Of a stretch of 64,000 nt of DNA, positions 8,740-36,262 are shown piece after piece. Numbering within the stretch: position 1 is the stretch's first letter; every line of letters starts with the position of its first letter. This stretch comes from Deltaproteobacteria bacterium (GTDB lineage Bacteria > Bdellovibrionota_F > JAHFAK01), in NCBI GenBank assembly GCA_023250585.1, contig JAHFAK010000001.1:232-64231 (forward strand). The letters run 5' to 3'. Under the pieces are notes generated by a model that made no database searches, was not told where the DNA came from, and was given only the letters and a program-made list of their open reading frames with translations. A program made the translations under genes and the position numbers.

Positions 8740-8742
8740 GTT

Positions 8743-14486: not shown

Positions 14487-14502
14487 GTATCACCTCATGA
14501 AT

Positions 14503-21098: not shown

Positions 21099-21110
21099 AA
21101 GTATATTTTT

Positions 21111-22169
21111 CTAAATTTTAAGAGCAGCTTGTTTACGTGCATAATATTTCTGTTGTAACGCTTTCAGAAGGCCATAAACCGATCCTAAACCATAACTTAC
21201 ATGAAGCGAAAAAAATATACCCGGCATTAAAAAAAAGTAAAGAAGATTCCTCGTTGTTACTGCTCTTTTAAAAGAAAAATAGAGAGTGCAAAAACAGTAG
21301 AGTCCAAAAACAGACAAAAAAATAAAACAACACACATTACTTACTACCGAAAGAAGAATAAATAATACAAAAAATAATACAAAAAATACAGGAACGAGAT
21401 GACGAATGGAAAAATCTGCATTATCTGAACCTAGAGGAAATGTAACAAGAACTCCATTGTTAAAGTTATGGATTAAAAATTCTCGTAAGGTCCCACGAGC
21501 AAAATAAAAACTCTCTATTTTTGGCACAAGAATAATCTTTCCTCCTCGCATTCTAATCCGACTATTTAGCTCAAAATCTTCATTACATCGGCCATGCCAT
21601 TTTGGTAACTGTTCATTATACATTCCTATTTCATCAAATAATTTTTTTCTAAAACATCCAAAAGGAACCGTATCAACTGCTCGAGGGGTTTCATTGTTCC
21701 TTGCTGTTCTAAAACCTCGAGGGCCAACTCCAAAAGGATGAGCCAGAGCTATAGCAATTGACTGCGCGATCAAGGTATTCTTTACAGGAAAAGTCTTTAC
21801 AATTCCGCCCACATTATCTGCATTATACTTTTCGAGATTCGCAATACATTGTGGAATATATTCTTTTGGATAGACGGCGTGCGCATCAATCCGGATAATA
21901 ATATCACCTTGCGCTGCCTGTATTCCTTTATTAAGAGCAGCAGGGGTGAACTTCTTTGGATTGTCTAACAATTTAATGAAAGGATATTTTTTTTGATACT
22001 GTTTTACAATCTGTATTGTTCTATCTTCACTATGTCCATCGACGACAATGATTTCAATGAGATTAATTAGGTAATCGGTATCAATGAGCGAATCAAGACA
22101 TTTTCCAATAAAATATTCTTCATTCAAACAAGGAATAATAACAGAAACCTTTTGATGAGGTACACTCAT
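21111..22169 (-). CDS. GT2-family glycosyltransferase with C-terminal membrane anchor
   Basis: VSVIIPCLNEEYFIGKCLDSL, DxD-like IVVDGHSEDRT, and three C-terminal TM helices. Confidence 0.8.
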   Translation of the reverse strand: MSVPHQKVSVIIPCLNEEYFIGKCLDSLIDTDYLINLIEIIVVDGHSEDRTIQIVKQYQKKYPFIKLLDNPKKFTPAALNKGIQAAQGDIIIRIDAHAVYPKEYIPQCIANLEKYNADNVGGIVKTFPVKNTLIAQSIAIALAHPFGVGPRGFRTARNNETPRAVDTVPFGCFRKKLFDEIGMYNEQLPKWHGRCNEDFELNSRIRMRGGKIILVPKIESFYFARGTLREFLIHNFNNGVLVTFPLGSDNADFSIRHLVPVFFVLFFVLFILLSVVSNVCCFIFLSVFGLYCFCTLYFSFKRAVTTRNLLYFFLMPGIFFSLHVSYGLGSVYGLLKALQQKYYARKQAALKI

Positions 22170-22891
22170 AAATTCAAATAATGAACATTCCTTTCAGTAA
22201 ACGTAAGATCTTCGAGAGTATTGATCTCAAATAATGGTTTATTGGTAGCATCAAGAGAATAATAATCTATTTCTTTAATTGCTTCGTGTATTATGCCAAA
22301 ATAATGCTGATTTTTATCTCCATATTTTATACATTGTTTAATTTTATTCAGCAAAAATTGAGTACTATTTTTTGAAAATTTTGCAAAACCAAATGCCTTT
22401 GCAACACACTCTGATGAATATATATGTGCCATTTTTGTGATTCTATCTTTTGAAAGCGTTACATATTCCATCTTTCCGTTTGGGGTAAAATCTTTTTTAA
22501 TTGCAATTATATTTTCATGAGAACTTACAATAAGCTCTTGTAAAAGATCTGGAGCAAATACAATATCACAATTCAAATGAATATAACTTTCACCCTGTAT
22601 CCAATCACGTGCTAACCATACAGAGAAAGAACTATTACTCGTTGCAAACTCTCTATTCCAGATGTAGTGAATGTGGATCTGAGGAAATTCTTCCTGCATA
22701 AAATGCTGAATTAGTTCTCCATGATATCCAAGAACAATCGCAATATCTTTAATGTCATTTGCTATTACAGATCGTATTTGATAATCTAATATTGGTTTTC
22801 CACCAACAGGTGTTAGAGCTTTTGGCCGATCGGCTGTTATGTATTTTAATCGTGATCCCAGACCAGCAGCAAGGATAAGTGCTTTTGACAT
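22166..22891 (-). CDS. sugar-phosphate / phospho-alcohol nucleotidyltransferase (NTP_transferase family; LicC/IspD-like size)
   Basis: MSKALILAAGLGSRLKYITADRPKALTPVGGKPILDYQI, i.e. the G-x-G-x-R-L ... K nucleotide-binding signature. 241 aa. Confidence 0.7.
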   Translation of the reverse strand: MSKALILAAGLGSRLKYITADRPKALTPVGGKPILDYQIRSVIANDIKDIAIVLGYHGELIQHFMQEEFPQIHIHYIWNREFATSNSSFSVWLARDWIQGESYIHLNCDIVFAPDLLQELIVSSHENIIAIKKDFTPNGKMEYVTLSKDRITKMAHIYSSECVAKAFGFAKFSKNSTQFLLNKIKQCIKYGDKNQHYFGIIHEAIKEIDYYSLDATNKPLFEINTLEDLTFTERNVHYLNL

Positions 22892-22900
22892 ATTCTATTA

Positions 22901-24505
22901 TTAATTATGGCTTGTATTTGTATACGCAACGGTAGGAGGTTTTGTAACAGGAGATATTTCGGGCAGTTGTCTACGTCTAAAGATCATTCGATAAGCAGTA
23001 CGAAGTACTGATTCTATCCTCGTTTCATCAGGTCTTCCCATAATAATATTGTAGAGAGCTTTAAAAAATCTCCACGGACGTAAACTATAGCTCACAATAT
23101 AAAATGAGATCAGTCCAAAGAATTTATATCGATGGAGCGCTCTACTTGAAATATGTAGAGACCATGAAACTGTCTTTTTTACAGTAGATGTCGAAGCTAA
23201 GGACCAAAGATATTCATCGTTATACTCCGGAATACGTCCGGAGGTTCGTAATTGATGAAAAAGTTCAGAACCTGGATATGGAATAAATCCCGTAATAGTG
23301 ATATCCTGAACACCAATTACTGCTAATTCCCAAATAAACCATATAGTTTCCCATATCTCACTATGTTTTTCTTCAGGAAATCCTATAATGATGTTTGCTT
23401 TTACTACAATTCCGCTCCGAAGACTGCTTCTCATTGAACGCTTCATTTTTTTGAGATCAACGGCCTTTTTGATTCTTTTTAGCACTCTAGGTGATCCACT
23501 CTCGGGAGCATAATAAATCGTGCGACATCCTGTGCGGTAAAGAAGGTCCGCTACTTCTTCGTCAATTGCTTCACTACGAGTTCCATTGGGAAATTGATAG
23601 GTAATATCGAGTTTTCTTTCTAATATTGACTTACAATACTCTATTATCCAACTCCGCTTTGTTACCATAGTCAGATCACAGAATCCAAAATTTTGGACTC
23701 CATATAGTTTGTTGTAATGCTCCATTTCATCAAGAATCTTTCTAGGGTCTCTCGTTAAATACGTCGTAGTCCACATTTGAGGACTTGAACAAAAGGTACA
23801 TTGAAAAGGACACCCTCGTGTAGCAAGAAAAGGAAGACTCCGGCGACCCTGGACCCCATGGCCAAAACCATTATCTAAGTACGCTGAAAGCGGGAAAAGA
23901 TCCCATGATGGAGGAGGAATATCATCCACCTTTTGGATACGGAGTGCCCGTAAGTTACGATCAACAGAACCTTGTGTAGGAATATGCCGAACTGGATTTT
24001 TTTGAGAAAGAATTGCTCCCGTTTCAGGCACAGGCTTACCATTATCTAGCAAGGAAATAAGACTTAAAAATGAAAATTCTCCTTCACCAATTATGCAATA
24101 ATCTATCTCAGGATTTTCTTCAAGTGTTATCTGAGCGGTAGCGGTCACATGTTCACCTCCAACGACAATTGGTCGATCTGGAAAATTTTTACGAATTTTT
24201 TTGATGAGATCTCGAGCAATTGGCCATTCATGAGAAAACATACATGAGATTCCAAAATAATCAGTTTTTGGATTGAGCCGCTCCAAAACTTCATCGAGTG
24301 TAAGACCGTGAGCAAAATATTTTCCTTCATGAACAGGATAAATTTGAAAGATTGATTCTCCTACTGAATCAATTGCATCTACAATGTGATCTTCTTTTTG
24401 GAGACAGGCAGCAAGATATGCAAGACCTAGAGGTGGAACACAAGACCGCGAAGGAACAGCCCTTACTACAACCATTGGTGGTCGTATCAGTGTAATATAA
24501 CTCAT
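22901..24505 (-). CDS. B12-binding domain radical SAM enzyme (class B radical SAM family)
   Basis: N-terminal cobalamin-binding region RPPMVVVRAVPSRSCVPPLGLAYLAACL and radical-SAM cluster ATRGCPFQCTFCSSPQMW (CxxxCxxC). Confidence 0.85.
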   Translation of the reverse strand: MSYITLIRPPMVVVRAVPSRSCVPPLGLAYLAACLQKEDHIVDAIDSVGESIFQIYPVHEGKYFAHGLTLDEVLERLNPKTDYFGISCMFSHEWPIARDLIKKIRKNFPDRPIVVGGEHVTATAQITLEENPEIDYCIIGEGEFSFLSLISLLDNGKPVPETGAILSQKNPVRHIPTQGSVDRNLRALRIQKVDDIPPPSWDLFPLSAYLDNGFGHGVQGRRSLPFLATRGCPFQCTFCSSPQMWTTTYLTRDPRKILDEMEHYNKLYGVQNFGFCDLTMVTKRSWIIEYCKSILERKLDITYQFPNGTRSEAIDEEVADLLYRTGCRTIYYAPESGSPRVLKRIKKAVDLKKMKRSMRSSLRSGIVVKANIIIGFPEEKHSEIWETIWFIWELAVIGVQDITITGFIPYPGSELFHQLRTSGRIPEYNDEYLWSLASTSTVKKTVSWSLHISSRALHRYKFFGLISFYIVSYSLRPWRFFKALYNIIMGRPDETRIESVLRTAYRMIFRRRQLPEISPVTKPPTVAYTNTSHN

Positions 24506-24540
24506 ATACTATTATTGTATATACTCTTAAAAAATTCTTA

Positions 24541-25464
24541 TCAAGAAACTTGTTTTTGTAGAATCAAATGAAGTCCATCTTGTTTTCGCTTTGCTCTCTC
24601 TAGCGCAATATCAATAACATCTTTTGCCGAAAACGAATTCTTATGAACTGGAATATTAATTGGCTTATAGTAATATCCTAATGCTCCTAACCACTCCAAA
24701 AGATTTTTTGCACTAGTACCAAATCTTTCTAAACCTGGTGGCCAAAATTCCATAATAATGGTCGGACTGCTTTTTTGCAAAAGTCTTTTTGCTCCTTCTA
24801 ATACCAAACCTTCTGCTCCTTGAATATTCATCTTGAGTACATCCAATTTCATAGTACCAACATGCTGATCAAAATAATCGTCAAGTCTTACTGAGTTGAC
24901 TGAATATTCTCTATACTCGTTTTCATCTCTTTCATTATCTTTACCGTGACTTTTGAGGGATGAAGATAAATTTTCTCGAGAAAGAGAACCTGCAGAAGTA
25001 AAATTGTTGTTTGCATATAAAGTTTGATAACCATTCGAGTTAGAAACTGCCATTTCTAATAGTGAAACGTTTTTATGAGTATTCGCCTCAACATTTTTCT
25101 TGAGGATTGCAAAACACTGAGGATCTGGTTCAAATGCATATACATGTCCTGTTTTACCCACTTGTTCAGCAGCTATTAGAGTGAGATGACCTATATTGGC
25201 ACCGATATCCGCTACAAACATGCCTGGTGAAATAGTCTTACTAAAATAATCGGTTATTGGCTTCACATGATCACCAAAAACAAGCAGACGGCGAGAAACA
25301 CCTAAATCAGTTGGAATAAGAAAAATTCTTTGCCCATGAAATTCCACTGATGGATTTTTTCCCAAGGTACGAATAAATATTAGATATGCCGAACTATAGA
25401 ATGAAAGAAACCCCGGGATTTTACCTATTCCCATTTTTTTAAGAAAACGAAAAAAATTTCTCAT
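24541..25464 (-). CDS. FkbM-family SAM-dependent methyltransferase
   Basis: MFVADIGANIGHLTLIAAEQ...VYAFEP is the Methyltransf_21/FkbM motif. Confidence 0.7.
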   Translation of the reverse strand: MRNFFRFLKKMGIGKIPGFLSFYSSAYLIFIRTLGKNPSVEFHGQRIFLIPTDLGVSRRLLVFGDHVKPITDYFSKTISPGMFVADIGANIGHLTLIAAEQVGKTGHVYAFEPDPQCFAILKKNVEANTHKNVSLLEMAVSNSNGYQTLYANNNFTSAGSLSRENLSSSLKSHGKDNERDENEYREYSVNSVRLDDYFDQHVGTMKLDVLKMNIQGAEGLVLEGAKRLLQKSSPTIIMEFWPPGLERFGTSAKNLLEWLGALGYYYKPINIPVHKNSFSAKDVIDIALERAKRKQDGLHLILQKQVS

Positions 25465-26849
25465 ACTCCTCCTCTTTGTGTATGTACTTCAATCCATTCT
25501 CCATTTTCATGACACTTGAAAAAGGTAAGTGGCTTGATTGATTGACATAAACTTTTGCCTGTTGTTGAGTCAAATCGAAGGCCATGCCAAGGACATAGTA
25601 TTGTTGAATCTTTAATAATTCCAGTAGCAAGATCTGCTCCCTCGTGAGGACAGAAACGATTAAATGCCATAACTCGATCATCGTATCGAGCAACGCAAAT
25701 TGAATCACTTAAAGGTCTAGTCTCATTATGCACAAGATCGGTTGAACGGAATACTATAATTGAAGGATCATTCCCCGAACGCGTTTTGAGATACTGATTT
25801 TTGCTCAGAGGTATTTCTGTTGCAGGAGGAATTATGCCTCGTTTAAAACCTTTGCTTCGGGCTAAGAAAAAACGAGGGTGAGGAAATCTCTGAACTTTGG
25901 CTTTCATCCTATGATTATGCGAAAAAAATTTCACTCGCCGAAAATCGTAATAACAGAAGTTCTTATAGTAATCAGGTTTTTCAAACGTCATTCTCATGCT
26001 GATAATTAAACGTGTTTTATCTGTTTGATTAATAGTTGAAGCATGAATTTGGTCTGCCATGAATAATAAAACATCTCCAGGCTCTAAATTAAACGTAATT
26101 CCTCTACCTAAATGATAATGAGGATCTATCTCTTGTTTTTCATTACAGGCAAGCTGTTTGCCCCACATGGTTGGATAAAATGTCAAACCATTAAATTCAG
26201 AGACATGTCCAATGGCACACCAAAGATTTACAGTATTAAATGCATGAAAAAACCAGGAATCCTGATGAGGCCCGTGAAGGGTTACTTTACCACGACCAAT
26301 TGTTTTTGCTAAATGCCGGAGACTTACTAACTCACGAGACATAACATCATATGGATACATCATTCGTATATTTGGGCCTGTCTCTACATAAAACGGAGTT
26401 CTCCTTGCCAAAGTAAAAAAATTAAACCGTGCCATAATATTGAGGGCAAGCTCGGGAATTACTTTTTCGGTTTCCTCATAAAATTTGCTAAGGCTTTTGG
26501 CAGGTAAAACTTCATGAATTTTTTCTATACCGTGTTTTTTAACATAACTTACAGCGCCTTCATTACAAACGATCATGAGTGCTCGCAAGATTTCAGCAAC
26601 AACGGTATCGTGCATTGCAATATTTTGAAGACACCGGCGGATCACAACGATTTCACCATGTTTAATCCGCTCAATTATTTCTTGAGAAGAAATTAATTCC
26701 ATTGTATCGAAGTTATGTGACTCTAGTAAAACCACGCCTTGAAAATCACGAACATCCCAAGAAAAAACATTAATCTTTTTCAGAAAATAACGTCTCAAAT
26801 ATGCAGGCATTTGTTGTAAACTCATATTATCGTAAAAAAACCTTTTCAA
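25461..26849 (-). CDS. fusion protein: PhyH-like Fe(II)/2-oxoglutarate-type oxygenase domain + C-terminal Rieske [2Fe-2S] domain
   Basis: HGPHQDSWFF (HxD facial-triad motif) and distal IHASTINQTDKTRLIISMRM (H...N-S...R as in PhyH). C-terminal CPHEGADLATGIIKDSTILCPWH is an exact CxH-x16-CxxH Rieske site. Confidence 0.6.
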   Translation of the reverse strand: MKRFFYDNMSLQQMPAYLRRYFLKKINVFSWDVRDFQGVVLLESHNFDTMELISSQEIIERIKHGEIVVIRRCLQNIAMHDTVVAEILRALMIVCNEGAVSYVKKHGIEKIHEVLPAKSLSKFYEETEKVIPELALNIMARFNFFTLARRTPFYVETGPNIRMMYPYDVMSRELVSLRHLAKTIGRGKVTLHGPHQDSWFFHAFNTVNLWCAIGHVSEFNGLTFYPTMWGKQLACNEKQEIDPHYHLGRGITFNLEPGDVLLFMADQIHASTINQTDKTRLIISMRMTFEKPDYYKNFCYYDFRRVKFFSHNHRMKAKVQRFPHPRFFLARSKGFKRGIIPPATEIPLSKNQYLKTRSGNDPSIIVFRSTDLVHNETRPLSDSICVARYDDRVMAFNRFCPHEGADLATGIIKDSTILCPWHGLRFDSTTGKSLCQSIKPLTFFKCHENGEWIEVHTQRGGV

Positions 26850-28395
26850 AAGGATCTTTAAAAATTTTATTAAACAACTTACTGATAAGCGCCTTAAGAG
26901 ATGCCTCCATACGAGACTCTTCTTTTTTTCCCATCACAATATTAAACAGGGGTTTGAAAAATCTTTGTGGACGTCTCACAAAGCTCACTGAATAAAAAAG
27001 CAGAAGACCAAAAATACGATACAAAGCTAGCTCTCTATGAGAAATATCATCCGACCATGATACTGATTTTGAAATATTTGAGGTTGTTGCTAAAGACCAG
27101 AAATACTCATCATGGTATTCGGGTAAACGTCCTGTAGCTCTTAAGTGATCATAGATTTCAGTTCCTGGATATGGAATATATCCTGAGATAGTTGTTTCAT
27201 GTACTCCCAACCATGCTATTTCTACTAAAAACTTCATTGTCTGCCATACTTCTCTATGCGTTTCTCCAGGAAAACCTAATATAGTATTACTCTTGATTAC
27301 CATGCCTTTTTTAAGACATCCTTTCATTGATTTTTTCATAGAATGAAGGTTCACCTTCTTTTTTATTCTCGCAAGTACTGTAGGCGACCCACTTTCTGGG
27401 GCATAATTTAAATTACGGCACCCTGATGTATAAAGAAGTTCTGCAACTTCTTCATCAATCGCTTCTGACCGTGTACCACTAGGCAGTTGCCAGGTAAATT
27501 GGTGTTTTCTTTTAAGAATAAGATTGCAAAATTCTACAATCCAATTTTTCTTAACAATTGCCGTGAGGTCATAAAAACTAAAATTTTCTGCTTTATACCG
27601 ATCAAGATACAATTCCATTTCTGATAAAACTTTTTCAGGTTTTCGTGCAACCCATCGGGTACTCCACATTTGAGGACTAGAACAAAAAGTACATTGATAC
27701 GGGCATCCACGTGTGGCAAGCATCGGCATATTTCGACCACGATTAACGCCGTAACCAAAGTTGTGGTCAAGATATTCTTCTAATCGAATAAGATCCCATG
27801 CAGGTAGGGGTATATCATCAATATCATGTACTCGAAGATTAAAGAGATATTTATCAACGGGACCGGAGCGATGTGGCTTTATAGGATTTGATTTTGTAAT
27901 AACAGCAGGAAGCCCTTCTCCGTTTTCACCTAAAGATAAAGCGCCTACAAGTCGAGTAAAATGCAACTCCCCCTCTCCTAATACACATGCATCGACTTCT
28001 TGAAAATTTTTTAAAATCCATGAAGCAGTAGCCGTTACATGTTCTCCCCCACAAATGATAGGCTTATGAGGGAATCGAAGCTTTAACTTTTTAATGACCT
28101 GATACGCAAGAGGCCACTCTACGGAGAACATAGCTGAAACACCAATGATATCGAAATTATCATCAACCCTTTCAACAATTTCATCAGGGGTAAGACCATG
28201 AATAATATGACGCCCATTATTAATAGGTGTCATTTGAAATATTGATTCTCCAACTGCATCGATAATTTTAACCTCATGTCCTGCTTCTCGTAAACTTGAT
28301 GCAATATACCCAAGCCCAAGTGGTGGACACGTGGATCGAGACTGAACAAGTCTCACAACAATCATTGGAGGACGAATTAAGATAACTCGACTCAT
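26827..28395 (-). CDS. B12-binding domain radical SAM enzyme, paralogue of 22901..24505
   Basis: RPPMIVVRLVQSRSTCPPLGLGYIASSL and ATRGCPYQCTFCSSPQMW. Collinear with the other copy over its whole length. Confidence 0.85.
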   Translation of the reverse strand: MSRVILIRPPMIVVRLVQSRSTCPPLGLGYIASSLREAGHEVKIIDAVGESIFQMTPINNGRHIIHGLTPDEIVERVDDNFDIIGVSAMFSVEWPLAYQVIKKLKLRFPHKPIICGGEHVTATASWILKNFQEVDACVLGEGELHFTRLVGALSLGENGEGLPAVITKSNPIKPHRSGPVDKYLFNLRVHDIDDIPLPAWDLIRLEEYLDHNFGYGVNRGRNMPMLATRGCPYQCTFCSSPQMWSTRWVARKPEKVLSEMELYLDRYKAENFSFYDLTAIVKKNWIVEFCNLILKRKHQFTWQLPSGTRSEAIDEEVAELLYTSGCRNLNYAPESGSPTVLARIKKKVNLHSMKKSMKGCLKKGMVIKSNTILGFPGETHREVWQTMKFLVEIAWLGVHETTISGYIPYPGTEIYDHLRATGRLPEYHDEYFWSLATTSNISKSVSWSDDISHRELALYRIFGLLLFYSVSFVRRPQRFFKPLFNIVMGKKEESRMEASLKALISKLFNKIFKDPFEKVFLR

Positions 28396-29147
28396 TAGTC
28401 AGTTCTTCCTATATGATACCCGCCATCGACGGGTAATGTTACGCCCGTAATCCACGAAGAATCATCGGAAAGTAAAAAAAGTACTGCGCGAGCAATATCA
28501 TGTATTGAACCAAATCTTCCTAAAGCATGACTCTTTTTCAGTGCTTCATGTTCGTCATCTGATAATGCTGATAGATAATTTTCTACCAATGGAGTTTCTA
28601 CATACCCTGGGCAGACACAATTTGCTCTAATATTATGTTTAGCATAGTCAATAGCAATTGATTGAGTCAGCCCAACAAGACCCCATTTACTTGACATATA
28701 CGATGCACGTTCTTTCAGTGCACAAATTCCTGCAATAGATGAAATATTGACAATACTTCCCGCGCCTACCGAAATCATATGCTCAAGCGCTGCCTTAGAA
28801 CAATTAAACACTCCGGTGAGATTTGTCGCAATGGTTTTTTCCCAATCATCAAAACTGGTATTTCCAAGAACATTACGGGATGGGTTAATACCGGCGTTAT
28901 TCACAAGTCCAGTGACAGCATGCCCCTCTTTTTTAAGATGTTCAAAAAGTTTTGTAACATCTTCGGGAATGCTTATATCACATACATTGGTAATAAGTGA
29001 CGAAGATCTTTTGAGAGAAGCTAATTTTTCTTCTGTACGACCAATAGCATAAACAGTTGCTCCTTCATGTACAAGATCATAGGTAATTTGTTTTCCAATA
29101 CCTGAACCTGCACCGGTAACGACGATCGTTTTTTCTTTAAATCGCAT
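28395..29147 (-). CDS. short-chain dehydrogenase/reductase (classical SDR)
   Basis: TIVVTGAGSGIGK, NNAGIN, and the YMSSKWG catalytic YxxxK. Confidence 0.85.
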   Translation of the reverse strand: MRFKEKTIVVTGAGSGIGKQITYDLVHEGATVYAIGRTEEKLASLKRSSSLITNVCDISIPEDVTKLFEHLKKEGHAVTGLVNNAGINPSRNVLGNTSFDDWEKTIATNLTGVFNCSKAALEHMISVGAGSIVNISSIAGICALKERASYMSSKWGLVGLTQSIAIDYAKHNIRANCVCPGYVETPLVENYLSALSDDEHEALKKSHALGRFGSIHDIARAVLFLLSDDSSWITGVTLPVDGGYHIGRTD

Positions 29148-29149
29148 AA

Positions 29150-30274
29150 CTATACATCTTGTTTCAATTTATTCCAATGATCAATCCAAATATTATCATG
29201 AGTATCAAAAAAACGCGTTAGGAAATTTTTTACTCTATCTGGTTCTACCATATAAAAAGGTGAACCATTATTGTTATAGGGTAGTGCAATATCTTTAATA
29301 AGAACAAGACCTATTTTTTCGCTGGATGATTTTTTATCTCCTCGCATAAGCGCTGTTATAGCTTCTGCATCGATTCCTTGCTGAACTCGTCTATTAAGAG
29401 CTAAACGATTCATAAGTATAACAACATAATCTTTGAGTTCTGATGAAATTATACTCTGCTCTACACTAAAAGTAAGAGCCATCATGATACCAGCAGCGAT
29501 CGCATCTCCATGGCTTACCTCGTAATGAGAATATTTTTCAAGCGCATGGCCAAACGTATGCCCTAGATTGCTTGCTAATGGATCTTGTCGTCGTATCTTA
29601 ATTCTCACATTAATTGTTTCTCGTACAATTTCTATCATTACATCATCCGATGGTACTTCTTTATAGGCCATGAGAAGATCAAGAAGACGATGCGATCCGA
29701 GTAATCCATATTTAAATACCTCAGAAAATCCTTGTCTCATTTGATACGGTGAATTCGTATGAAGTAAGGTTACATTGTTGTATACAACACGAGGAAGATA
29801 GAGTGTGCCTAATAAATTTTTTGAGTACTCTGTATTAATACACGTTTTACCTGCAGTCGCTGCATCAGCTTGACCAATTAACGTCGTAGGAATCATCATA
29901 AGAGGAATGCCTCTCATATATACTGAAGCAAGAAATGAAATCGCATCAAGAATTGTTCCACCCCCAAGAGCAACAATTAAATCATCTCGCGAACATTTTA
30001 AATGAGCAAGATGATCAACTAAGAAAGCAAATGATCTAAGATCTTTTGATGCTTCTTCTGCTTTTAGAAATATAATCCCTTCTAAAGGAAAAAAATTGTG
30101 CAATTTTTTTTGTAAAGCGGGTAACCACGTATTTCTCAAAGCTTCGTCACAAAAGACAATCACTTTTCCGGGTTGTTTTGTAAGAATATTAAGCGTAAGT
30201 TCATCAAAGCTTTTTGTTTTATCAAGAATAAAACGCACTGTTTGTGTCTCAGTAACTGATTCTTCAAAAATCAT
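29150..30274 (-). CDS. 3-dehydroquinate-synthase-like sugar-phosphate cyclase superfamily enzyme
   Basis: GGGTILDAISFLASVYMRGIPLMMIPTTLIGQADAATAGKTCIN and HTFGHALE match the DHQS nucleotide and metal sites. Confidence 0.8.
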   Translation of the reverse strand: MIFEESVTETQTVRFILDKTKSFDELTLNILTKQPGKVIVFCDEALRNTWLPALQKKLHNFFPLEGIIFLKAEEASKDLRSFAFLVDHLAHLKCSRDDLIVALGGGTILDAISFLASVYMRGIPLMMIPTTLIGQADAATAGKTCINTEYSKNLLGTLYLPRVVYNNVTLLHTNSPYQMRQGFSEVFKYGLLGSHRLLDLLMAYKEVPSDDVMIEIVRETINVRIKIRRQDPLASNLGHTFGHALEKYSHYEVSHGDAIAAGIMMALTFSVEQSIISSELKDYVVILMNRLALNRRVQQGIDAEAITALMRGDKKSSSEKIGLVLIKDIALPYNNNGSPFYMVEPDRVKNFLTRFFDTHDNIWIDHWNKLKQDV

Positions 30275-30288
30275 ATTTTCTCATGATG

Positions 30289-30999
30289 CTATAAGAGAAA
30301 GAGTTTTTCTCTTTCTCTTTGTTGTTCTATTTCTTTGATTTTATTGACTCGTGTAACAAAAGCATCAAAATTGCCTTGTATAAGATTATGTTCGCCGAGT
30401 ATCGAAAAAAGACGAGGCATTGTACTCATGTATATAGGGTCCATTTTTAAAAAATCAGCAGCAAAGTGGTAGCCTAATTGTTGAGGTTCCATGCATGAAA
30501 AAAAATCTTTTAAAATTTTTTTTTCATGCTCACACGCAAGTGAAAGACGTACATCATAGTAAGAATCTACCCACGGTGGAGTAAAATCAACATAAGCCAG
30601 TTCGACTCCATTCCATACAAAGTTTTTAATGTGAGGATCAAAATTCAATCGAGCGTTTTGTGCTTTACGGAGAATACTAAAAATCCTGTCGAGAACTTTT
30701 TTTTCCGGGAGCAGATCATTAGGTGCTATTTTCCTCATATATTGTAAAATATTTGGACCTTTAAACTCACATATATAGATGAGACGTTCTTGATTTGCTT
30801 CTGATTTATATATTTCTGGTACGGGAATTCCAGCACTTGTTAGTTTTGTAACGTAGTGAATAATAGCTTTCTCAAGATCACACCAGTGAATTCCCAAGTG
30901 AACATTTAGGCGAGTTTCCTTACGGATACATTCACGACCTTCAAAATGTACTGTAGAAAATTTAGAATCTTGAACGCTATAACGATTTAATTCTTCCAT
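30289..30999 (-). CDS. hypothetical protein with weak protein-kinase-like / phosphotransferase fold features
   Basis: RLNFDPHIKNFVW resembles the HxD-x4-N catalytic loop, and AYVDFTPP a DFG-like metal loop, of APH/choline-kinase/Kdo-kinase enzymes. Weak. Confidence 0.3.
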   Translation of the reverse strand: MEELNRYSVQDSKFSTVHFEGRECIRKETRLNVHLGIHWCDLEKAIIHYVTKLTSAGIPVPEIYKSEANQERLIYICEFKGPNILQYMRKIAPNDLLPEKKVLDRIFSILRKAQNARLNFDPHIKNFVWNGVELAYVDFTPPWVDSYYDVRLSLACEHEKKILKDFFSCMEPQQLGYHFAADFLKMDPIYMSTMPRLFSILGEHNLIQGNFDAFVTRVNKIKEIEQQREREKLFLL

Positions 31000-32036
31000 T
31001 GCCCAATATATCTTACTAAATCAACAACACGTGATGAATATCCCCATTCGTTGTCATACCACAAAACCATTTTCAGATAATTGTGTTCATTCATATAAAT
31101 CCATCGGTGATCTATGACAGCTGAATAGCTTGATCCAGTAAAGTCTGTAGAAACAAGCGCTTCTTTATTATTAAAGAATATATTCCATTTCTGATTTTTT
31201 TCTTCCTCTTCAAATACTGATTGAATGGTATCAACATTGACTTTTTCCTCGAGCTCAACGGAAAGATCAGCAGAAGAAACAATCATTGTTGGAATACGAT
31301 ATGACATAGATAAAAATTTTCCCGTAAGGTTTTTAAGTACTTTACATGAAGCAGAAATTGCAGATGTTGTTTTTGGTATTAATGAATTCGTACTTCCTCT
31401 TCCTAACGCATAATGATCATGAATTTTCCCCGGCGTAGCATAAGAAATCGAAGGACCATCAAGGAGATTCTGATAATTTAACCATGGATGTAGGGTAGTC
31501 AAAAATCCATGTTTAATTCCAAATTTTTTATCGAGCACATGTGCTGTCGGTGAAAAAGCATTGGCATCGCAGATACTACTTGAAATAAGAAAATGACGTT
31601 CTGGCTTGAAATCATCATGATTAACTCCTAAGATAATTGCAATATCAACTTCATCTTCTTGAGGAGCATTCGTAACAATGCAATGACGAACTCCTTGTGT
31701 TTTCAGTTTCCGTGCATTGATAAGATTCTGCTTAACCCCAGAAGAATCAATGACAATATCAACTCCTTCTTTATTCCATGGAACATCAGAAATATTTTCA
31801 TGACGATACACGCGCAATTTTTTTTCGTTTCCTATAGTAATTGTATCTCCTGTTACTGCAATACTCTTCTCAAGACGTCCATATGTTGAATCATACTTAA
31901 TAAGATAAGCAATATTATTAATATCTGGGTTAATATCGTTGATACAAACAATATCAATATCAGGATGCTCAAGCGTAATACGTAATACCGCTCGCCCTAT
32001 TCTTCCTAGACCGTTAATACCTACTTTAAAACTCAT
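30987..32036 (-). CDS. glyceraldehyde-3-phosphate-dehydrogenase-family dehydrogenase (divergent)
   Basis: Start refined to the internal ATG (MSFKVGINGLGRIGRAV). C-terminal WYDNEWGYS GAPDH signature. Active-site region SSSICDANAFSP retains Cys but is atypical. Confidence 0.8.
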   Translation of the reverse strand: MSFKVGINGLGRIGRAVLRITLEHPDIDIVCINDINPDINNIAYLIKYDSTYGRLEKSIAVTGDTITIGNEKKLRVYRHENISDVPWNKEGVDIVIDSSGVKQNLINARKLKTQGVRHCIVTNAPQEDEVDIAIILGVNHDDFKPERHFLISSSICDANAFSPTAHVLDKKFGIKHGFLTTLHPWLNYQNLLDGPSISYATPGKIHDHYALGRGSTNSLIPKTTSAISASCKVLKNLTGKFLSMSYRIPTMIVSSADLSVELEEKVNVDTIQSVFEEEEKNQKWNIFFNNKEALVSTDFTGSSYSAVIDHRWIYMNEHNYLKMVLWYDNEWGYSSRVVDLVRYIGQWKN

Positions 32037-32062
32037 ATTAATTCCTTTCGTAAAGAGCATTA

Positions 32063-32764
32063 TTATTGTATATTCTTTGATCGAGGATAATTCAAGAAAC
32101 TCATGCTGAGCCACAGTATTGATGAAATTCCATAAAAAATAGTTACAACAAATGAAATAACTTTTAGATCCCACCCACAAACAATAGTGATTCCTAAAAA
32201 AAGAGGAAGTAAAGCTAACATAAACCGTACTGAAAGAAATGAATATTTGTTATAGTATAAATGAACAAATGTTCCTATAAAACCTTGAGAAGGCATTTCT
32301 TTTACTGCCAGTGGAACAAAAATGATGAGCACTCCGCTTGAAAAAGCTGCGAGTAGAATTAAGTAATAGCTCTCTGTATAAATCCCAAAAAGGACAATGA
32401 GCATCAACCGAGCAAGATTACAGCCCAAATCATCAAGAAGGTGCCCAAGCATACTACAACTGTTTGAAGCTTTAGCTATAGGACCATCAGCAAAATCAAC
32501 AAAGATAAGAAAATAAATGCAAAAGATTCCAATAATGGGAAGCAGAACTACTCCATTCATAGCTGTCACAAGAAAACAATATCCAATGAACACAAGAAAA
32601 ATTGCAGAAACATCAAGCACGTTGGCGGTTATCCCAATTTTGTAAGCAAAAAAAGCAAACTGCAGTGCAATCCATTTCACAAGATTAGTCGTAAAATCAA
32701 ATTGTTTTCTGTCAAAAACTGATCTTTCAGGAAACTGTTTAGCTGTAAATTGAGTAAATGTCAT
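32063..32764 (-). CDS. CDP-alcohol phosphatidyltransferase-family membrane enzyme
   Basis: DFADGPIAKASNSCSMLGHLLDDLGCNLAR contains the D-G-x2-A-R/K...G-x3-D-x3-D signature. 6 TM helices. Confidence 0.7.
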   Translation of the reverse strand: MTFTQFTAKQFPERSVFDRKQFDFTTNLVKWIALQFAFFAYKIGITANVLDVSAIFLVFIGYCFLVTAMNGVVLLPIIGIFCIYFLIFVDFADGPIAKASNSCSMLGHLLDDLGCNLARLMLIVLFGIYTESYYLILLAAFSSGVLIIFVPLAVKEMPSQGFIGTFVHLYYNKYSFLSVRFMLALLPLFLGITIVCGWDLKVISFVVTIFYGISSILWLSMSFLNYPRSKNIQ

Positions 32765-33993
32765 AATGTAGTTCCTTCCATGAGTTCAAGAAAACGATCT
32801 GCTGAAATTGACCATGAATAATGCTTTTCGGTAATCGAACGGATATCTTCTGCTCGCATAACATACCTTTCTCGATTTCGACAAAAATCCTCTATTTTAT
32901 TACCTATGCTTTGAGGATCACATCCATTAATAATCCACTCTTTGTTATAGCGCTTAAGAATTTCTGGAGTTGCCCCATTGTCAGTGCCAAGCACAACAAG
33001 TCCTGAGAGTAATGCTTCAACAGTTGCAAGACCAAATCCTTCAGCACCTTGCGTAGGAAGAATAAAAGCATCCGCAACTTGATAGTAATGAGCTAACTCT
33101 ATTTCAGAAATTCCACTGACAAGGCGGACAGAATCTTTTAGAGAAAGTGAGTCTATGTACTGACGAATTTTCGTTTCCATCACACCTCGTCCAACAATTA
33201 TTATAAAAAATGAAACTCCTTTTTTTTTGAGCCCTGCAAGGGCTTCGACAAGTTTATCAACTCCTGTCCGAGGTTTCAAACCACGTGCTGTTATAAAAAG
33301 AATCTGCTCTAACGGAAGATTAAGTTCCTTACGAAGTTTTATCTTTAATGCATTATTAGTAATCGGAGTATACAGTTTTTCATCTGCTCCACCTGGAACA
33401 ATTTTAATCTTATCTTTAACTCCATTTCGGCCAATTGAAATACAACGATCACGTGCATACTCACTGTGAACCAAAACAAGATCTGCTTTGCTAATAACTG
33501 AAATAGCAATGCGATCGAAAAAATGTCCAATAATCTGTACTACTGGATTTTTTGGATAATTATATAAAAGTTCCGAATAAACATCACTATGAAAATCATA
33601 TATAATTTTTGCACGAGGCCACCATCGTTTTGGATTAAAACCTATCATCCACCATGGATTATGAACCCACACAACATCTATATTTTCATACTGCGATGCC
33701 ATCTTCTTCTGAGCACTATAGGATTGTACTGCAGTAACAAGAGGCCATAACATATGAGTGAGATCGCCTCTTTTAGGAATAGAAACTCGGAAATAGTGCA
33801 TATTTTCGACTATTTCATATGAAGAATATTTATGACTGTATTTCCGGGTAAGTATAATAACTTCATGGTTTCGATATGCTAATTCTCGTGAAATATTGTA
33901 TACAAGCTTAGGTAAGCCGCTATGGCGATCAGGATAAATTCCGGGTGTAAGAACAAGTATCTTCATTCTAGTTATTTTTTTTATGCCCAACAA
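32761..33993 (-). CDS. GT4-family glycosyltransferase (GT-B, retaining)
   Basis: C-terminal PTQGAEGFGLATVEALLSGLVVLGTDNGATPEIL is the EX7E region of Glycos_transf_1. Confidence 0.85.
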   Translation of the reverse strand: MLGIKKITRMKILVLTPGIYPDRHSGLPKLVYNISRELAYRNHEVIILTRKYSHKYSSYEIVENMHYFRVSIPKRGDLTHMLWPLVTAVQSYSAQKKMASQYENIDVVWVHNPWWMIGFNPKRWWPRAKIIYDFHSDVYSELLYNYPKNPVVQIIGHFFDRIAISVISKADLVLVHSEYARDRCISIGRNGVKDKIKIVPGGADEKLYTPITNNALKIKLRKELNLPLEQILFITARGLKPRTGVDKLVEALAGLKKKGVSFFIIIVGRGVMETKIRQYIDSLSLKDSVRLVSGISEIELAHYYQVADAFILPTQGAEGFGLATVEALLSGLVVLGTDNGATPEILKRYNKEWIINGCDPQSIGNKIEDFCRNRERYVMRAEDIRSITEKHYSWSISADRFLELMEGTTL

Positions 33994-35665: not shown

Positions 35666-35668
35666 TCT

Positions 35669-36262
35669 TTATACAAGAAAAGAAATTTCTTGAGCTATTC
35701 TATGAGTATCACGTTGACCAATGATACGATTATAAACTAAAGATACTTTCTTGGCAGTTTTTGTCTCAAGATCATAACTAAGACAACCAACAATTGGTTT
35801 ATAATAAACATGAAGCGTACAGGCACGACGATTGTTAATTGCAGGATTCTCTAATTGATGAATCCCGATCTCATCATCAATATAAGAAACGTCTCCCCTA
35901 TTATACGTTTCTTGAAGTAATGGTGTAAGGTCGCCTTTAAAGTCAATGGATTTTACATAAACATAATTTTTACTCTCTATAGTCCCTCGTAGAACAGTCA
36001 TACAACAATGCTGCCCTTCATGATCATGAATTGGTGTTTTTTGCCCTGGTTCCCAACATAGAATAAGTATTTCAAAAAATTCATTTTTAAAAATAAGATT
36101 CCGGGTATAATGAGATTGATGAAAATAATATAAATTTTCCAAGGAACATTCAAAAAGTTTATATTGATGCATGAGTTCTAAAATTCTTTCATTTTCTATA
36201 GCTAAGGATGGAGAGAATAATCGAGAAATTTTCTGAATAAATTCTCTCAGTTGAGTTAGCAT
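35669..36262 (-). CDS. cysteine-dioxygenase-type-I-like cupin (thiol dioxygenase family)
   Basis: ILILCWEPGQKTPIHDHEGQHCCMTVLRG closely parallels mammalian CDO [29 protein letters not shown] (the 3-His iron site HxH...H). Confidence 0.7.
   Translation of the reverse strand: MLTQLREFIQKISRLFSPSLAIENERILELMHQYKLFECSLENLYYFHQSHYTRNLIFKNEFFEILILCWEPGQKTPIHDHEGQHCCMTVLRGTIESKNYVYVKSIDFKGDLTPLLQETYNRGDVSYIDDEIGIHQLENPAINNRRACTLHVYYKPIVGCLSYDLETKTAKKVSLVYNRIIGQRDTHRIAQEISFLV

Follow-up and report, generated by a model that had tools for sequence, protein, structure and literature searches.

To our knowledge, all members of the 3-dehydroquinate synthase (DHQS) superfamily characterized so far cyclize. 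Cyclitol pathways such as those for validamycin and cetoniacytone also have VOC/glyoxalase partners, the ValD/CetB-type epimerases. Among enzymes that use CDP-activated alcohols, the choline/ethanolamine phosphotransferases use diacylglycerol and DIPPS uses a small alcohol. For polyol phosphates on Gram-negative glycans there is a characterized precedent, the CDP-6-D-glucitol of the Campylobacter jejuni HS:5 capsule (PMC10918830), and the description of such a substituent as unusual in the first-pass annotation of the locus studied here was overstated.

The window analyzed here is a 64,000-nucleotide stretch from a Deltaproteobacteria bacterium (assembly GCA_023250585.1, contig JAHFAK010000001.1). 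Five tightly packed ORFs are present on its minus strand at 28395–32764, as previously annotated, and they lie within a large locus for a surface polysaccharide of this uncultured bacterium. They encode a short-chain dehydrogenase/reductase (SDR), a DHQS-like protein (DHQSL), a small kinase (KinL), a GAPDH-like dehydrogenase (GAPL), and a CDP-alcohol phosphotransferase-family protein. Because genes are separated by at most 35 nt throughout 19635–36262, this whole array looks like an operon.

A recurrent module in glycan loci

The five-gene set forms the core of a module that we find again on over 35 independent contigs from metagenomes or MAGs, and DHQSL, SDR and GAPL co-occur in three architectures (L001–L002 and L082–L119). 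Where a longer context is available, it is in every case a Wzx/Wzy/glycosyltransferase locus with sugar-nucleotide genes and initiating transferases. Literature searches found no characterized members of these enzyme clades, and the cassette enzymes are without any characterized close relative. The module is also carried by DPANN-type archaeal MAGs assigned to the Pacearchaeota (P0115) and Woesearchaeota (L120). In the latter, KinL, the nucleotidyltransferase and the CDP-alcohol phosphotransferase are found together without GAPL or DHQSL, and on this basis the genes for activation and for transfer travel as a set.

We lean, if only slightly, toward a reading in which a single module attaches to a glycan, through a phosphodiester, a non-sugar head group (X) made from a sugar phosphate. 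Its six steps and their order are inferred from family chemistry and from gene-for-gene replacement across related loci. The model is at its least certain on the nature of X, for which a deoxy hydroxy-acid is more likely than a cyclitol.

A chance grouping of the housekeeping genes aroB, gapA, pgsA and fabG might be read from the fact that the top Pfam match of each protein is a housekeeping family, and close relatives of DHQSL are automatically annotated as “3-dehydroquinate synthase.” This explanation is effectively refuted. DHQSL scores 243.8 against the aroB model TIGR01357 (cut-off 305), GAPL scores 277.6 against the GAPDH-I model TIGR01534 (cut-off 367), and the SDR likewise falls under the cut-offs of the FabG models. 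True AroB proteins are only 29–34% identical to DHQSL, key substrate residues are changed in both GAPL and DHQSL, and the same gene set recurs in glycan loci on unrelated contigs.

A new clade of the DHQS superfamily

Both sequence (PF01761, 8e-32; PF24621, 5e-22) and fold place DHQSL (374 aa, 29150..30274, minus strand) in the sugar-phosphate-cyclase superfamily; its AlphaFold model (pLDDT 92.7) gives a TM of ~0.8 to AroB structures. The motifs GGG, IPTT, AGKT and HTFGHALE reported earlier are all found in its translation. Profile searches separate it from glycerol-1-phosphate dehydrogenase (G1PDH, 5e-4, versus 3e-72 for aroB). In a neighbor-joining tree its clade, monophyletic in 99 of 100 bootstraps, falls outside DHQS, aDHQS, EVS, EEVS, DDGS, DOIS and an EboD-like protein. 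A grouping with glycerol or iron-alcohol dehydrogenases, which the first-pass annotation had named as evidence for lipid housekeeping genes, is not what we found. DHQSL belongs to a new clade of the superfamily and is not AroB, glycerol-1-phosphate dehydrogenase or an Fe-alcohol dehydrogenase.

The clade conserves R130, D146, K152, N162, E194, K197, N268, H271, H275, H287 and K356, and DHQSL keeps every metal and phosphate ligand. Its fingerprint is an invariant K250R substitution, the loss of E260, and a 6-residue deletion that takes out R264. The elimination machinery is thus kept, and the part that grips C1–C2 of DAHP is gone. This fingerprint fits no cyclitol synthase class: EEVS and DDGS have M250, D/A268 and P275 where the DHQSL clade has R250, N268 and H275, and DOIS has G264 and E268, in contrast to the deleted 264 loop and N268 of DHQSL.

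These differences, and the position of the clade outside those classes, count against the proposal that DHQSL cyclizes a ketose or aldose phosphate (sedoheptulose-7-P or Glc-6-P) to a carbocycle, which the SDR would reduce and the kinase and nucleotidyltransferase would convert to a CDP-cyclitol for transfer to a glycan by the CDP-alcohol phosphotransferase, as modeled on the di-myo-inositol-phosphate or C7-cyclitol pathways. Membership of the superfamily favors such a route, as do the VOC/glyoxalase proteins that many loci (P0108, P0115, L083, L088, L089, L095) encode either beside DHQSL or as a fusion with it, and which resemble the validamycin and cetoniacytone epimerases. The module also shares its kinase and nucleotidyltransferase logic with acarbose and validamycin biosynthesis, and the nucleotidyltransferase and the CDP-alcohol protein weakly match IPCT/DIPPS and archaetidylinositol-phosphate synthase. 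With the active site against it, however, we consider a cyclitol product unlikely. Of the first-pass annotation, the CDP-alcohol logic is retained (an alcohol is made, phosphorylated, CTP-activated and transferred within a glycan locus), and the cyclitol identity is not. Two further genes that it had tied to this pathway, a split transketolase (8743–10562) and a TagF-like gene (54269–55807; PF04464, 1e-13), are present but are never found beside the cassette in other loci; the lack of a conserved transketolase is a further point against the cyclitol route. Nothing points to the spirochaetal host that it had raised.

In the model that we prefer, DHQSL would instead act at step 2, expelling a terminal phosphate by the same NAD+/metal chemistry as dehydroquinate synthase. 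Transient oxidation would fall on the hydroxyl that lies two carbons away from the carbon bearing the phosphate; the phosphate would then be β-eliminated and the oxidized position re-reduced, yielding an ω-deoxy keto-acid, probably without ring closure. A non-cyclizing DHQSL would be new for its superfamily, which counts against this reading.

GAPL, the SDR, and a syntenic locus lacking DHQSL

GAPL is a divergent GAPDH-family dehydrogenase (357 aa, 30987..32060, minus strand; PF00044 and PF02800). The start listed for its ORF, TTG at 32180, runs into the upstream gene; the true start is either ATG 32060, as in the gene call in L001, or ATG 32036, which has AAGGA 8 nt upstream and gives 349 aa. 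In an alignment to the Bacillus stearothermophilus GAPDH, Cys149 and His176 are retained, as are R231 and the Arg of the S-loop at the anion site, but the inorganic-phosphate site is changed (S148I, T150D, G209S). The clade is marked by the signatures SSSIC-D-A, HPWLxYQNLLDGP and LIPK(T/S)TSA, and xCD is found at the catalytic Cys in 93 of the 150 best library representatives. GAPL is also found fused to a HAD phosphatase (P0276, P0361). These fusions, together with the retained catalytic residues and both anion-site arginines, suggest that GAPL works on a phosphate ester before dephosphorylation. At step 1 it would turn a phosphorylated open-chain aldehyde into the matching acid phosphate. 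Our best guess for the substrate is erythrose 4-phosphate, by analogy with Epd. GAPL scores 194–215 against the Epd models (cut-off 530). A cyclitol route offers no role for this obligatory GAPDH-family partner.

The SDR (250 aa, 28395–29147, minus strand) is of the classical type (PF13561, 7e-59), and its gene directly adjoins that of DHQSL in almost all loci found. At step 3 it would reduce the DHQSL-derived ketone to a deoxy hydroxy-acid; were erythrose 4-phosphate the substrate, this product would be 2,3-dihydroxybutanoate.

Locus L121 is syntenic with 19635–35665 of the window. The two share GAPL (73% identity), KinL (45%), the CDP-alcohol phosphotransferase (52%), the nucleotidyltransferase (54%) and a radical-SAM enzyme (76%), as well as a beta-helix protein (46%), GT4 (52%) and GT2 (56%) glycosyltransferases, and Wzx (41%). 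L121 is without DHQSL and SDR, and a HAD-IA hydrolase sits between GAPL and KinL. This replacement suggests that DHQSL and the SDR fill the dephosphorylation step, and substitution by a plain HAD phosphatase is hard to reconcile with a cyclase.

Activation and transfer of the head group

KinL (236 aa, 30289–30999, minus strand) belongs to no Pfam family, matching only DUF6206 below threshold. Foldseek searches with its AlphaFold model (pLDDT 90.5) returned only protein-kinase-like folds, for example Bud32 and Rio1 (E ~1e-4), and K27, D121xxxxN126 and D138 are invariant in the family. At step 4, KinL would phosphorylate a hydroxyl of the dephosphorylated head group. In at least seven loci (L082, L089, L095, L096, L100, L112, L114) its place is taken by a glycerate-kinase-family gene (TIGR00045, 151–162 bits; cut-off 168). 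In the third architecture, activation instead involves a FadD/MenE-like acyl-AMP ligase and an acyl carrier protein, together with a NeuD/PglB/VioB-type sugar N-acyltransferase and a DegT aminotransferase. The glycerate-kinase replacement and this carrier-protein activation variant point to a head group that bears a carboxylate as well as hydroxyls, again at odds with a cyclitol.

The nucleotidyltransferase (241 aa, 22166..22891, minus strand; PF12804/PF00483) is a proposed CTP:phospho-X cytidylyltransferase that would make CDP-X at step 5. Its NCBIfam matches, all under cut-off, are sugar-1-P nucleotidyltransferases and the IPCT half of IPCT/DIPPS. Since homologs are located within the cassette in other loci (36–54% identity in L085/86, L087, L002, L094, L098, L102, L108 and L121; also in L101), this distant gene is part of the module, as had been suspected.

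The CDP-alcohol phosphotransferase-family membrane protein (233 aa, 32063..32764, minus strand) barely exceeds the PF01066 cut-off (22.1 bits, cut-off 22). A profile of six family members matches AF2299 (2.4e-9), CEPT1 (6.5e-6) and PIP synthase (1e-5) ahead of PgsA from the PDB (3e-3), so that the protein is not the housekeeping PgsA considered earlier. The motif D90xxD93G94xxAK...G107xxxD111 is present. At the presumed fourth catalytic acid of the family (D3+5), however, the window protein has Asn116 (codon AAT) where every other ortholog or paralog examined has Asp or Glu, so that the enzyme of this window could be impaired. Its orthologs adjoin GAPL in L085, L087, L104, L115 and L121. Directly upstream is a GT4 glycosyltransferase gene (32761..33993, minus strand; PF00534/PF13439), which the transferase gene overlaps or abuts both here and at the equivalent position in L121. 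This GT4 probably produces the acceptor sugar for the head group. At step 6, the phosphotransferase would move phospho-X from CDP-X to the glycan or its lipid-linked precursor, which this GT4 would assemble and Wzx/Wzy would export.

The acceptor could also be diacylglycerol or a small alcohol, in which case X would head a novel polar lipid or form part of a soluble phosphodiester solute. All characterized CDP-alcohol phosphotransferases make phospholipids or DIP-type solutes, the top matches listed above are AF2299, CEPT1 and PIP synthases, and the occurrence of the module in DPANN-type archaea would fit. We nevertheless find this distinctly improbable, given that the long contexts all consist of Wzx, Wzy, GT2/GT4, sugar-nucleotide and initiating-transferase genes, that the transferase gene is so closely coupled to GT4, and that in the type-B architecture the same head-group enzymes supply a sugar N-acyltransferase.

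Tailoring genes

In the glycan-decorating model, X is probably tailored further in this window, as judged from the position of four genes, all on the minus strand, between the SDR and nucleotidyltransferase genes. Their products, two B12-binding radical-SAM enzymes, an FkbM-family methyltransferase and a PhyH–Rieske protein, would methylate or hydroxylate X, possibly in its cytidylylated form. The PhyH–Rieske protein, a PhyH-type dioxygenase with a fused Rieske [2Fe-2S] domain (462 aa, 25461..26849; PF05721 and PF00355), is seen in this window only, with no homolog in the other loci; from its place inside the packed operon, it is possible that it hydroxylates X. The FkbM protein (307 aa, 24541..25464; TIGR01444, 2e-34), likewise placed by position, may carry out an O-methylation. 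The first radical-SAM enzyme (522 aa, 26827..28395; PF02310 and PF04055) has the Sden_1168 P-methyltransferase family as its top NCBIfam match, under cut-off, and is a probable C-methyltransferase of the head group; its orthologs adjoin the cassette in L107 (71% identity), L108 (67%) and L121. The second (534 aa, 22901..24505) is its paralog, at 53% identity.

Organization of the Cassette

A glycan biosynthesis locus with a G+C content of ~35% fills the window, and nearly all of its genes lie on the minus strand. Family searches recovered rmlABCD, two Wzx-type flippases, one Wzy-like polymerase, numerous GT2 and GT4 glycosyltransferases, an initiating Bac_transf gene, PAPS-synthesis genes with a sulfotransferase, an LtaS-like gene and a TagF-like gene. 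All five of the contiguous minus-strand ORFs that the first-pass annotation had read as a cyclitol or polyol-phosphate decoration pathway were found at 28395–32764. They encode a classical SDR (28395–29147; PF13561, 7e-59), a DHQS-like protein, DHQSL (29150–30274; PF01761, 8e-32, and PF24621, 5e-22), a small kinase-like protein of 236 aa, KinL (30289–30999), which belongs to no family and was recognized by its predicted fold and invariant residues, a GAPDH-like protein, GAPL (30987–32060; PF00044 and PF02800, Pfam 6e-30 and 8e-32), and a membrane protein resembling CDP-alcohol phosphotransferases, CDPOH (32063–32764; PF01066, at the cut-off). The mechanically called GAPL ORF begins at TTG 32180 and extends into the upstream gene; the start is likely ATG 32060 or ATG 32036.

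From 19635 to 36262 all intergenic gaps are 35 nt or less and several genes overlap. A tRNA scan found none, and a scan for promoters and terminators gave counts equal to the shuffled expectation. An identical 6.7-kb contig occurs in an ENA metagenome. The suggestion of a spirochaetal origin is unsupported, as RmlA matches reach at most 73% identity and the named ones spread over several Gram-negative phyla.

The DHQS-like Enzyme

DHQSL carries the N- and C-terminal DHQ_synthase domains and the DHQS fold. Its AlphaFold model (pLDDT 92.7) gives TM values of 0.77–0.83 to AroB, DOIS, DDGS and ValA structures, and Foldseek confirmed the fold without discriminating among the classes. A tree was built from 24 family members and the reference sugar phosphate cyclases from the supplementary data of PMC4426668, with GldA as a distant outgroup. 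The DHQSL family is monophyletic in 99 of 100 neighbour-joining bootstraps and falls outside DHQS, aminoDHQS, EVS, EEVS, DDGS, DOIS and the EboD-like protein; its sister group is unstable in the bootstrapped tree.

Every NAD, metal and phosphate ligand of Aspergillus nidulans DHQS, whose residue numbering is used here, is kept in DHQSL. The metal ligands E194, H271 and H287 and the phosphate-binding residues R130, K152, N162, N268, H275 and K356 are present in the window protein and in 23 family members. None of the three residues that hold the carboxylate/hemiketal end of DAHP in AroB (K250, E260 and R264) is kept. Position 250 is an arginine, invariant across the family, E260 is replaced by A, V or S, and the loop bearing R264 is gone through a 6-residue deletion.

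Several class assignments were rejected. DHQSL is not AroB proper, as it scores 243.8 bits against a TIGR01357 cut-off of 305 and is 29–34% identical to genomic AroB genes. The fingerprint of the cyclitol synthases that act on sedoheptulose 7-phosphate (EEVS and DDGS), M250, D/A268 and P275, is absent, the family having R250, N268 and H275. DOIS is excluded by the lack of G264 and E268 (BtrC E243), the family having N268 and a deleted 264 loop; in the PDB search the DOIS structure 2d2x scored only 2.6e-20, compared with 2.5e-39 for a DHQS. Kinship with glycerol-1-phosphate or glycerol dehydrogenases, which the first-pass annotation had named as the finding that would overturn its reading, is likewise contradicted by the scores for the NF002022 G1PDH model (4.9e-4, 19 bits) and for PF00465 (3.6e-4, below cut-off).

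Natural fusions of DHQSL to a VOC/glyoxalase domain (PF00903) were seen in P0108 (524 aa) and in the Pacearchaeota proteins P0115 and P0123 (461–527 aa). These fusions suggest that the VOC protein acts on the DHQSL product, probably as an alpha-hydroxy-ketone epimerase.

The GAPDH-like Enzyme

GAPL has both the Gp_dh_N and Gp_dh_C domains and the catalytic Cys149 and His176, and it also keeps R231 and the S-loop arginine. It is not a glycolytic GAPDH (TIGR01534, 277.6 against a cut-off of 367), nor is it an Epd orthologue (193.8 and 214.7 in the Epd models against cut-offs of 530 and 539). The motif SICDAN stands in place of SCTTN and is accompanied by T179L, D181Y and G209S; the phosphate sites of the canonical enzymes have T179, T208 and G209. 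The clade-wide signature comprises SSSIC-D-A, HPWLxYQNLLDGP, an S-loop insertion and LIPK(T/S)TSA. The homologue search was exhaustive over 1.84 billion representatives; among the best 150 matches, which were inspected, 93 have xCD at the catalytic cysteine and 53 have the canonical SCTTN.

KinL, CDPOH and the Nucleotidyltransferase

No sequence family was found for KinL: a PDB profile search gave chance matches only, so that a structure model was needed for fold assignment, and DUF6206 fell below its cut-off. The AlphaFold model (pLDDT 90.5) matches protein-kinase-like folds only, all of the top Foldseek matches being PK-like kinases at TM values of just 0.4–0.5. K27, D121, N126 (D-x4-N) and D138 are invariant. 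KinL thus combines the bilobal kinase fold, ATP-binding lysine, catalytic D-x4-N and metal-binding aspartate that define the protein-kinase-like (ELK) group.

CDPOH scores 22.1 against the PF01066 cut-off of 22. A profile of six members searched against the PDB matched the AF2299 CDP-alcohol phosphotransferase best (2.4e-9), and also CEPT1 and PIP synthases. The signature residues D1, D2, G, A-K, G and D3 are present and D4 is out of register; orthologues have an acidic residue at D3+5, shifted by one in most members. At this presumed fourth catalytic acid the window protein alone has an asparagine, Asn116 (AAT, in LDDLGCN). The closest orthologues, in the syntenic locus L121 (LLDSLGCD) and in L087 (LDDIGCD), and the paralogues have Asp or Glu. 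The second assembly of the window sequence contains the same CDPOH sequence with Asn116. Judged from its sequence, the window enzyme may be impaired; alternatively, the neighbouring D112 may serve in place of Asn116.

The possibility that CDPOH is a housekeeping PgsA or PssA, also raised in the first-pass annotation as a counter-case, does not agree with the weaker match to PDB PgsA 7drj (2.8e-3, compared with 2.4e-9 for AF2299), the lack of an NCBIfam PgsA match or the position of the gene in a glycan locus. A product serving as a lipid head group or soluble solute would agree with the known roles of CDP-alcohol phosphotransferases, but this reading conflicts with the context of the cassette, which is invariably of the glycan type. 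The nucleotidyltransferase (22166–22891), proposed to be a CTP:phospho-X cytidylyltransferase where X is the head-group alcohol or acid, is not an IPCT/DIPPS enzyme, as it scores 41.7 bits against an NF041135 cut-off of 580 and the genes are separate and unfused.

Recurrence of the Gene Set

Uncharacterized metagenomic relatives of DHQSL are plentiful at 43–58% identity. Gene contexts were taken from seven look-ups and from thirty further contigs retrieved via a DNA pattern for the motif DPLASNLGHTFGHA, which is specific to the DHQSL family. A tblastn matrix of these loci (L-numbers designate contigs) revealed three recurring architectures around an invariant core of DHQSL, SDR and GAPL. Type A1, that of the window, consists of GAPL, KinL, DHQSL, SDR, nucleotidyltransferase and CDPOH, and is found in L085/86, L087, L002, L094, L098, L101, L102, L104, L108, L115, L117 and L118. 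Type A2 contains GAPL, a glycerate-kinase-family gene in place of KinL, nucleotidyltransferase, SDR, DHQSL and either a VOC/glyoxalase protein or a TIM-barrel epimerase (L082, L089, L095, L096, L100, L112–L114 and L119). Type B is distinguished by a DegT aminotransferase, SDR, DHQSL, VOC, acyl-AMP ligase, acyl carrier protein, GAPL and a sugar N-acyltransferase of the NeuD/PglB/VioB type (L083/84/103, L088, L093, L099 and L109). A scan of the genome collection with back-translated patterns matched ordinary AroB, with one true relative (L002) among 80 loci and no cultured carrier, and tblastn against the plasmid collection gave AroB-level matches only (~30% identity) and no member of the DHQSL family.

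A chance cluster of housekeeping genes is excluded by this recurrence of the gene set across loci, together with scores under the curated cut-offs and the altered substrate residues. The inclusion of the distant nucleotidyltransferase in the pathway is borne out, as it is 36–54% identical to nucleotidyltransferases embedded in Type A1 cassettes. In the window it is parted from the SDR gene by four inserted genes, encoding two paralogous B12-radical-SAM enzymes, an FkbM methyltransferase and a PhyH-Rieske fusion; a radical-SAM enzyme also adjoins the cassette in L107, L108 and L121. Two other proposed participants fall away: no transketolase like that encoded by the split gene at 8743–10562, suggested as a precursor supplier, is adjacent to the cassette in any other locus, and the TagF-like gene (54269–55807) never accompanies the cassette in other loci.

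A separate arrangement occurs in L120, from the Woesearchaeota MAG GCA_016185625.1. The region 6706–14675 has neither GAPL nor DHQSL; it encodes two nucleotidyltransferases, of which one is fused to an AAA_33 kinase domain, along with a CDP-OH transferase and a homologue of KinL (41% identity). The companions are two genes of the histidine-phosphatase/phosphoglycerate-mutase family, a HAD hydrolase, an IolG-like dehydrogenase and a radical-SAM gene. From this gene set, the genes for activation and transfer seem to be a portable unit that serves other head-group pathways.

Natural Variants and Proposed Chemistry

The locus L121 is syntenic with the window over eleven genes, at identities from 41% (Wzx) to 76% (radical-SAM), and has neither DHQSL nor SDR; a HAD-IA hydrolase stands between GAPL and KinL. 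HAD phosphatase domains are also fused to GAPL in the related proteins P0276 and P0361. This swap and these fusions therefore point to a GAPL product that is a phosphate ester and is dephosphorylated next, which is the step of DHQSL and SDR. In at least seven loci a glycerate-kinase-family protein, scoring near the curated cut-off, substitutes for KinL, and in Type B the product of the core enzymes goes to an adenylating enzyme resembling acyl-CoA ligases, together with a carrier protein and a sugar N-acyltransferase. The glycerate-kinase swap and the acyl activation of Type B imply a carboxylic hydroxy-acid.

GAPDH-family enzymes oxidize an aldehyde by way of a thiohemiacetal. In DHQS, the hydroxyl two carbons from the phosphate-bearing carbon is oxidized by NAD+, the phosphate is lost by beta-elimination, and re-reduction follows. 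From these established mechanisms and four independent kinds of natural variation we infer a six-step pathway as the most economical and most likely scheme. GAPL would oxidize an aldose phosphate to an aldonate phosphate, from which DHQSL would eliminate the terminal phosphate to give an omega-deoxy keto-acid, and SDR would reduce the ketone to a deoxy hydroxy-acid. KinL would then phosphorylate a hydroxyl, the nucleotidyltransferase would form CDP-X, and CDPOH, beside a conserved GT4, would move phospho-X to the glycan or a lipid-linked precursor.

Since GAPDH-type enzymes need a free aldehyde and Epd provides a precedent within the family, our best guess for the GAPL substrate, by analogy, is erythrose 4-phosphate. 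The window would then have 2,3-dihydroxybutanoate as X, and L121 would have erythronate. Glyceraldehyde 3-phosphate is, in our judgement, an unlikely substrate: DHQS-type elimination is impossible on 3-phosphoglycerate, and central metabolism already supplies 2- and 3-phosphoglycerate, making dedicated genes needless. Loss of the loop that binds C1/C2 of DAHP, together with K250R, would fit a shorter substrate with its carboxylate nearer the reaction centre. A reaction without aldol ring closure would fit the DHQSL changes as well, since carboxylates are not electrophilic.

Tailoring of the head group is the probable task of the radical-SAM pair, the FkbM methyltransferase and the PhyH-Rieske protein. 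Fom3, of fosfomycin biosynthesis, acts at the cytidylylated stage, and the tailoring enzymes may do likewise.

The original proposal of a cyclitol retains some support in the membership of DHQSL in the sugar phosphate cyclase superfamily, the VOC partners and the logic of a kinase followed by a nucleotidyltransferase. It leaves unexplained, however, the DHQSL fingerprint, the obligatory GAPL, the HAD phosphatase swap and the acid-type variants. The boldest form of the proposed scheme would make DHQSL a non-cyclizing NAD+-dependent "eliminative phosphatase" that acts on an aldonate phosphate from a new GAPDH-family clade and, with SDR, yields a deoxy hydroxy-acid such as 2,3-dihydroxybutanoate. 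This acid would be phosphorylated, cytidylylated, C-methylated by the B12-radical-SAM enzymes and put on surface glycans by the CDP-alcohol phosphotransferase. Taken jointly these claims are tentative, and it is rather doubtful that all of them will hold.

Comparison with Known Systems

Searches of the PDB, NCBIfam and the searchable literature turned up no characterized homologue; the literature covered included work on glyceramide O-antigen genes, on capsule or O-antigen clusters with DHQS and GAPDH, and on CDP-alcohol transferases encoded within polysaccharide loci. The core reactions of DHQSL, namely oxidation, elimination of phosphate and reduction, are very probably those of AroB and the other sugar phosphate cyclases (aDHQS, DOIS, EEVS, EVS and DDGS), because the fold and the NAD, metal and phosphate ligands are the same. 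Unlike those enzymes, DHQSL always has a GAPDH-like enzyme and an SDR as partners, and it is interchangeable with a HAD phosphatase in L121. Like the module, the C7-cyclitol pathways of validamycin and acarbose draw on an enzyme of this superfamily, a reductase, a kinase, a nucleotidyltransferase and in some cases a VOC protein; their end product is an NDP-activated pseudo-sugar. The present module differs in the DHQSL fingerprint, which is unlike that of EEVS, in the obligatory GAPDH-like enzyme and in having no pseudo-glycosyltransferase; the window-type cassette also lacks a VOC gene.

The sequence of Epd and PdxB in pyridoxal phosphate synthesis shares with the proposal the GAPDH-family oxidation of a non-triose aldose phosphate to an acid phosphate. 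PdxB then oxidizes the 2-hydroxyl, and elimination of phosphate would need activation of just this kind. GAPL differs from Epd around the catalytic cysteine (I148 and D150), and the suggested parallel concerns the chemistry only. Coenzyme F420 biosynthesis (CofC/FbiD and CofD) proceeds through lactyl-2-diphospho-guanosine or an analogue derived from 3-phosphoglycerate. That route sets a precedent in which a 2- or 3-hydroxy-acid carrying a phosphate is joined to a nucleotide and the phospho-acid is then passed to an alcohol, but it uses unrelated enzyme families, a guanine nucleotide and a cofactor-precursor acceptor instead of a glycan.

In the CDP-polyol capsule and teichoic pathways (CDP-6-D-glucitol, CDP-2-glycerol, CDP-ribitol and CDP-glycerol), as is proposed for the module, polysaccharide-locus genes are dedicated to making the phosphate of a small alcohol, which a cytidylyltransferase then activates and a phosphotransferase attaches to the glycan as a phosphodiester. 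Those pathways reach the head group in one or two steps, by a reductase and in some cases a kinase, from F6P, Ru5P, DHA or G3P and use TagF, LicD or WchX-type transferases, whereas the module has GAPDH-like and DHQS-like enzymes before the reductase, a kinase with a protein-kinase fold and a membrane enzyme that probably belongs to the CDP-alcohol phosphotransferase family. The likeness of pneumococcal Gtp1, Gtp2, Gtp3 and WchX to the module is one of pathway logic only. The enzymology of the pneumococcal CDP-2-glycerol pathway was reportedly described by Wang et al. in 2010.

In IPCT/DIPPS and AF2299-type systems, as is proposed for the module, a cytidylyltransferase is paired with a small CDP-alcohol phosphotransferase of six helices whose donor is a soluble CDP-alcohol. 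IPCT/DIPPS is a fusion, whereas the module has two separate genes, a glycan-locus context and no inositol-phosphate synthase. CDPOH scores 24.9 against a cut-off of 180 in the archaetidylinositol-phosphate synthase model, and the fourth aspartate of AF2299-type enzymes is displaced by one residue in its family and is asparagine in the window protein.

A phospho-alcohol on a Gram-negative glycan, which had been considered unusual, is not surprising in itself, because CDP-6-D-glucitol decoration has been characterized in Campylobacter jejuni HS:5 (PMC10918830), CDP-2-glycerol genes (gtp1–3 and wchX) are known in pneumococcus (PMC1391919), and the module resembles IPCT/DIPPS. The novelty is in the enzymology, with a small kinase of no known family and a probable CDP-alcohol phosphotransferase located in a glycan locus, and in place of a polyol the pathway probably yields an acid. 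If the model is true, DHQS chemistry used only for phosphate removal and deoxygenation would be a new reaction type in a textbook family; the GAPDH family would gain a new substrate class and the family-less kinase a function, and CDP-alcohol phosphotransferases would have their first glycan-decorating role. The model would also add a class of glycan substituent, and of CDP-activated donor, that is new to the literature and would be widespread among uncultured bacteria and archaea of the DPANN type. It predicts an acidic, phosphodiester-linked substituent on the surface polysaccharides of many uncultured organisms, which would matter for antigenicity, phage receptors and cation binding.

Other Genes of the Locus

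The PhyH-Rieske protein (25461–26849, minus strand; 462 aa) is a PhyH-type Fe/2-oxoglutarate dioxygenase fused to a C-terminal Rieske [2Fe-2S] domain, and no homologue of this fusion was found in any related locus. Amid the biosynthetic operon, 33968–35665 (minus strand) encodes a secreted or anchored protein of 565 aa. Along with a right-handed beta-helix and a "choice-of-anchor Q" domain, this protein has two acidic, cysteine-rich repeats of the myxo type and a hydrophobic tail at its C-terminus. It is kept at the same position in L121 (4388–6289) at 46% identity. Directly upstream of it is a cysteine-dioxygenase-type cupin (35669–36262, minus strand; PF05995, 2e-23).

At 60531–62723 (minus strand) a 730-aa fusion joins a pyruvate-kinase barrel (PF00224, 1e-69) to PUA_2 and ATP-sulfurylase domains, and the gene adjoins an SDR (62708–63490) and a sulfotransferase (59591–60511). 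A second, conventional ATP-sulfurylase/APS-kinase is encoded at 5114–6859. Upstream of its cassette, L085 opens with a PK-domain gene, after which come a CTP_transf_3 gene and an SDR.

The window also encodes an LtaS/EptA-like membrane protein of sulfatase fold (45205–47136, minus strand; PF00884, 6e-34) and an LPG_synthase_TM/flippase-like protein (15316–16302, minus strand). It is possible that these are alternative phospho-group transferases or flippases. In L082 an LPG_synthase_TM gene adjoins the cassette.
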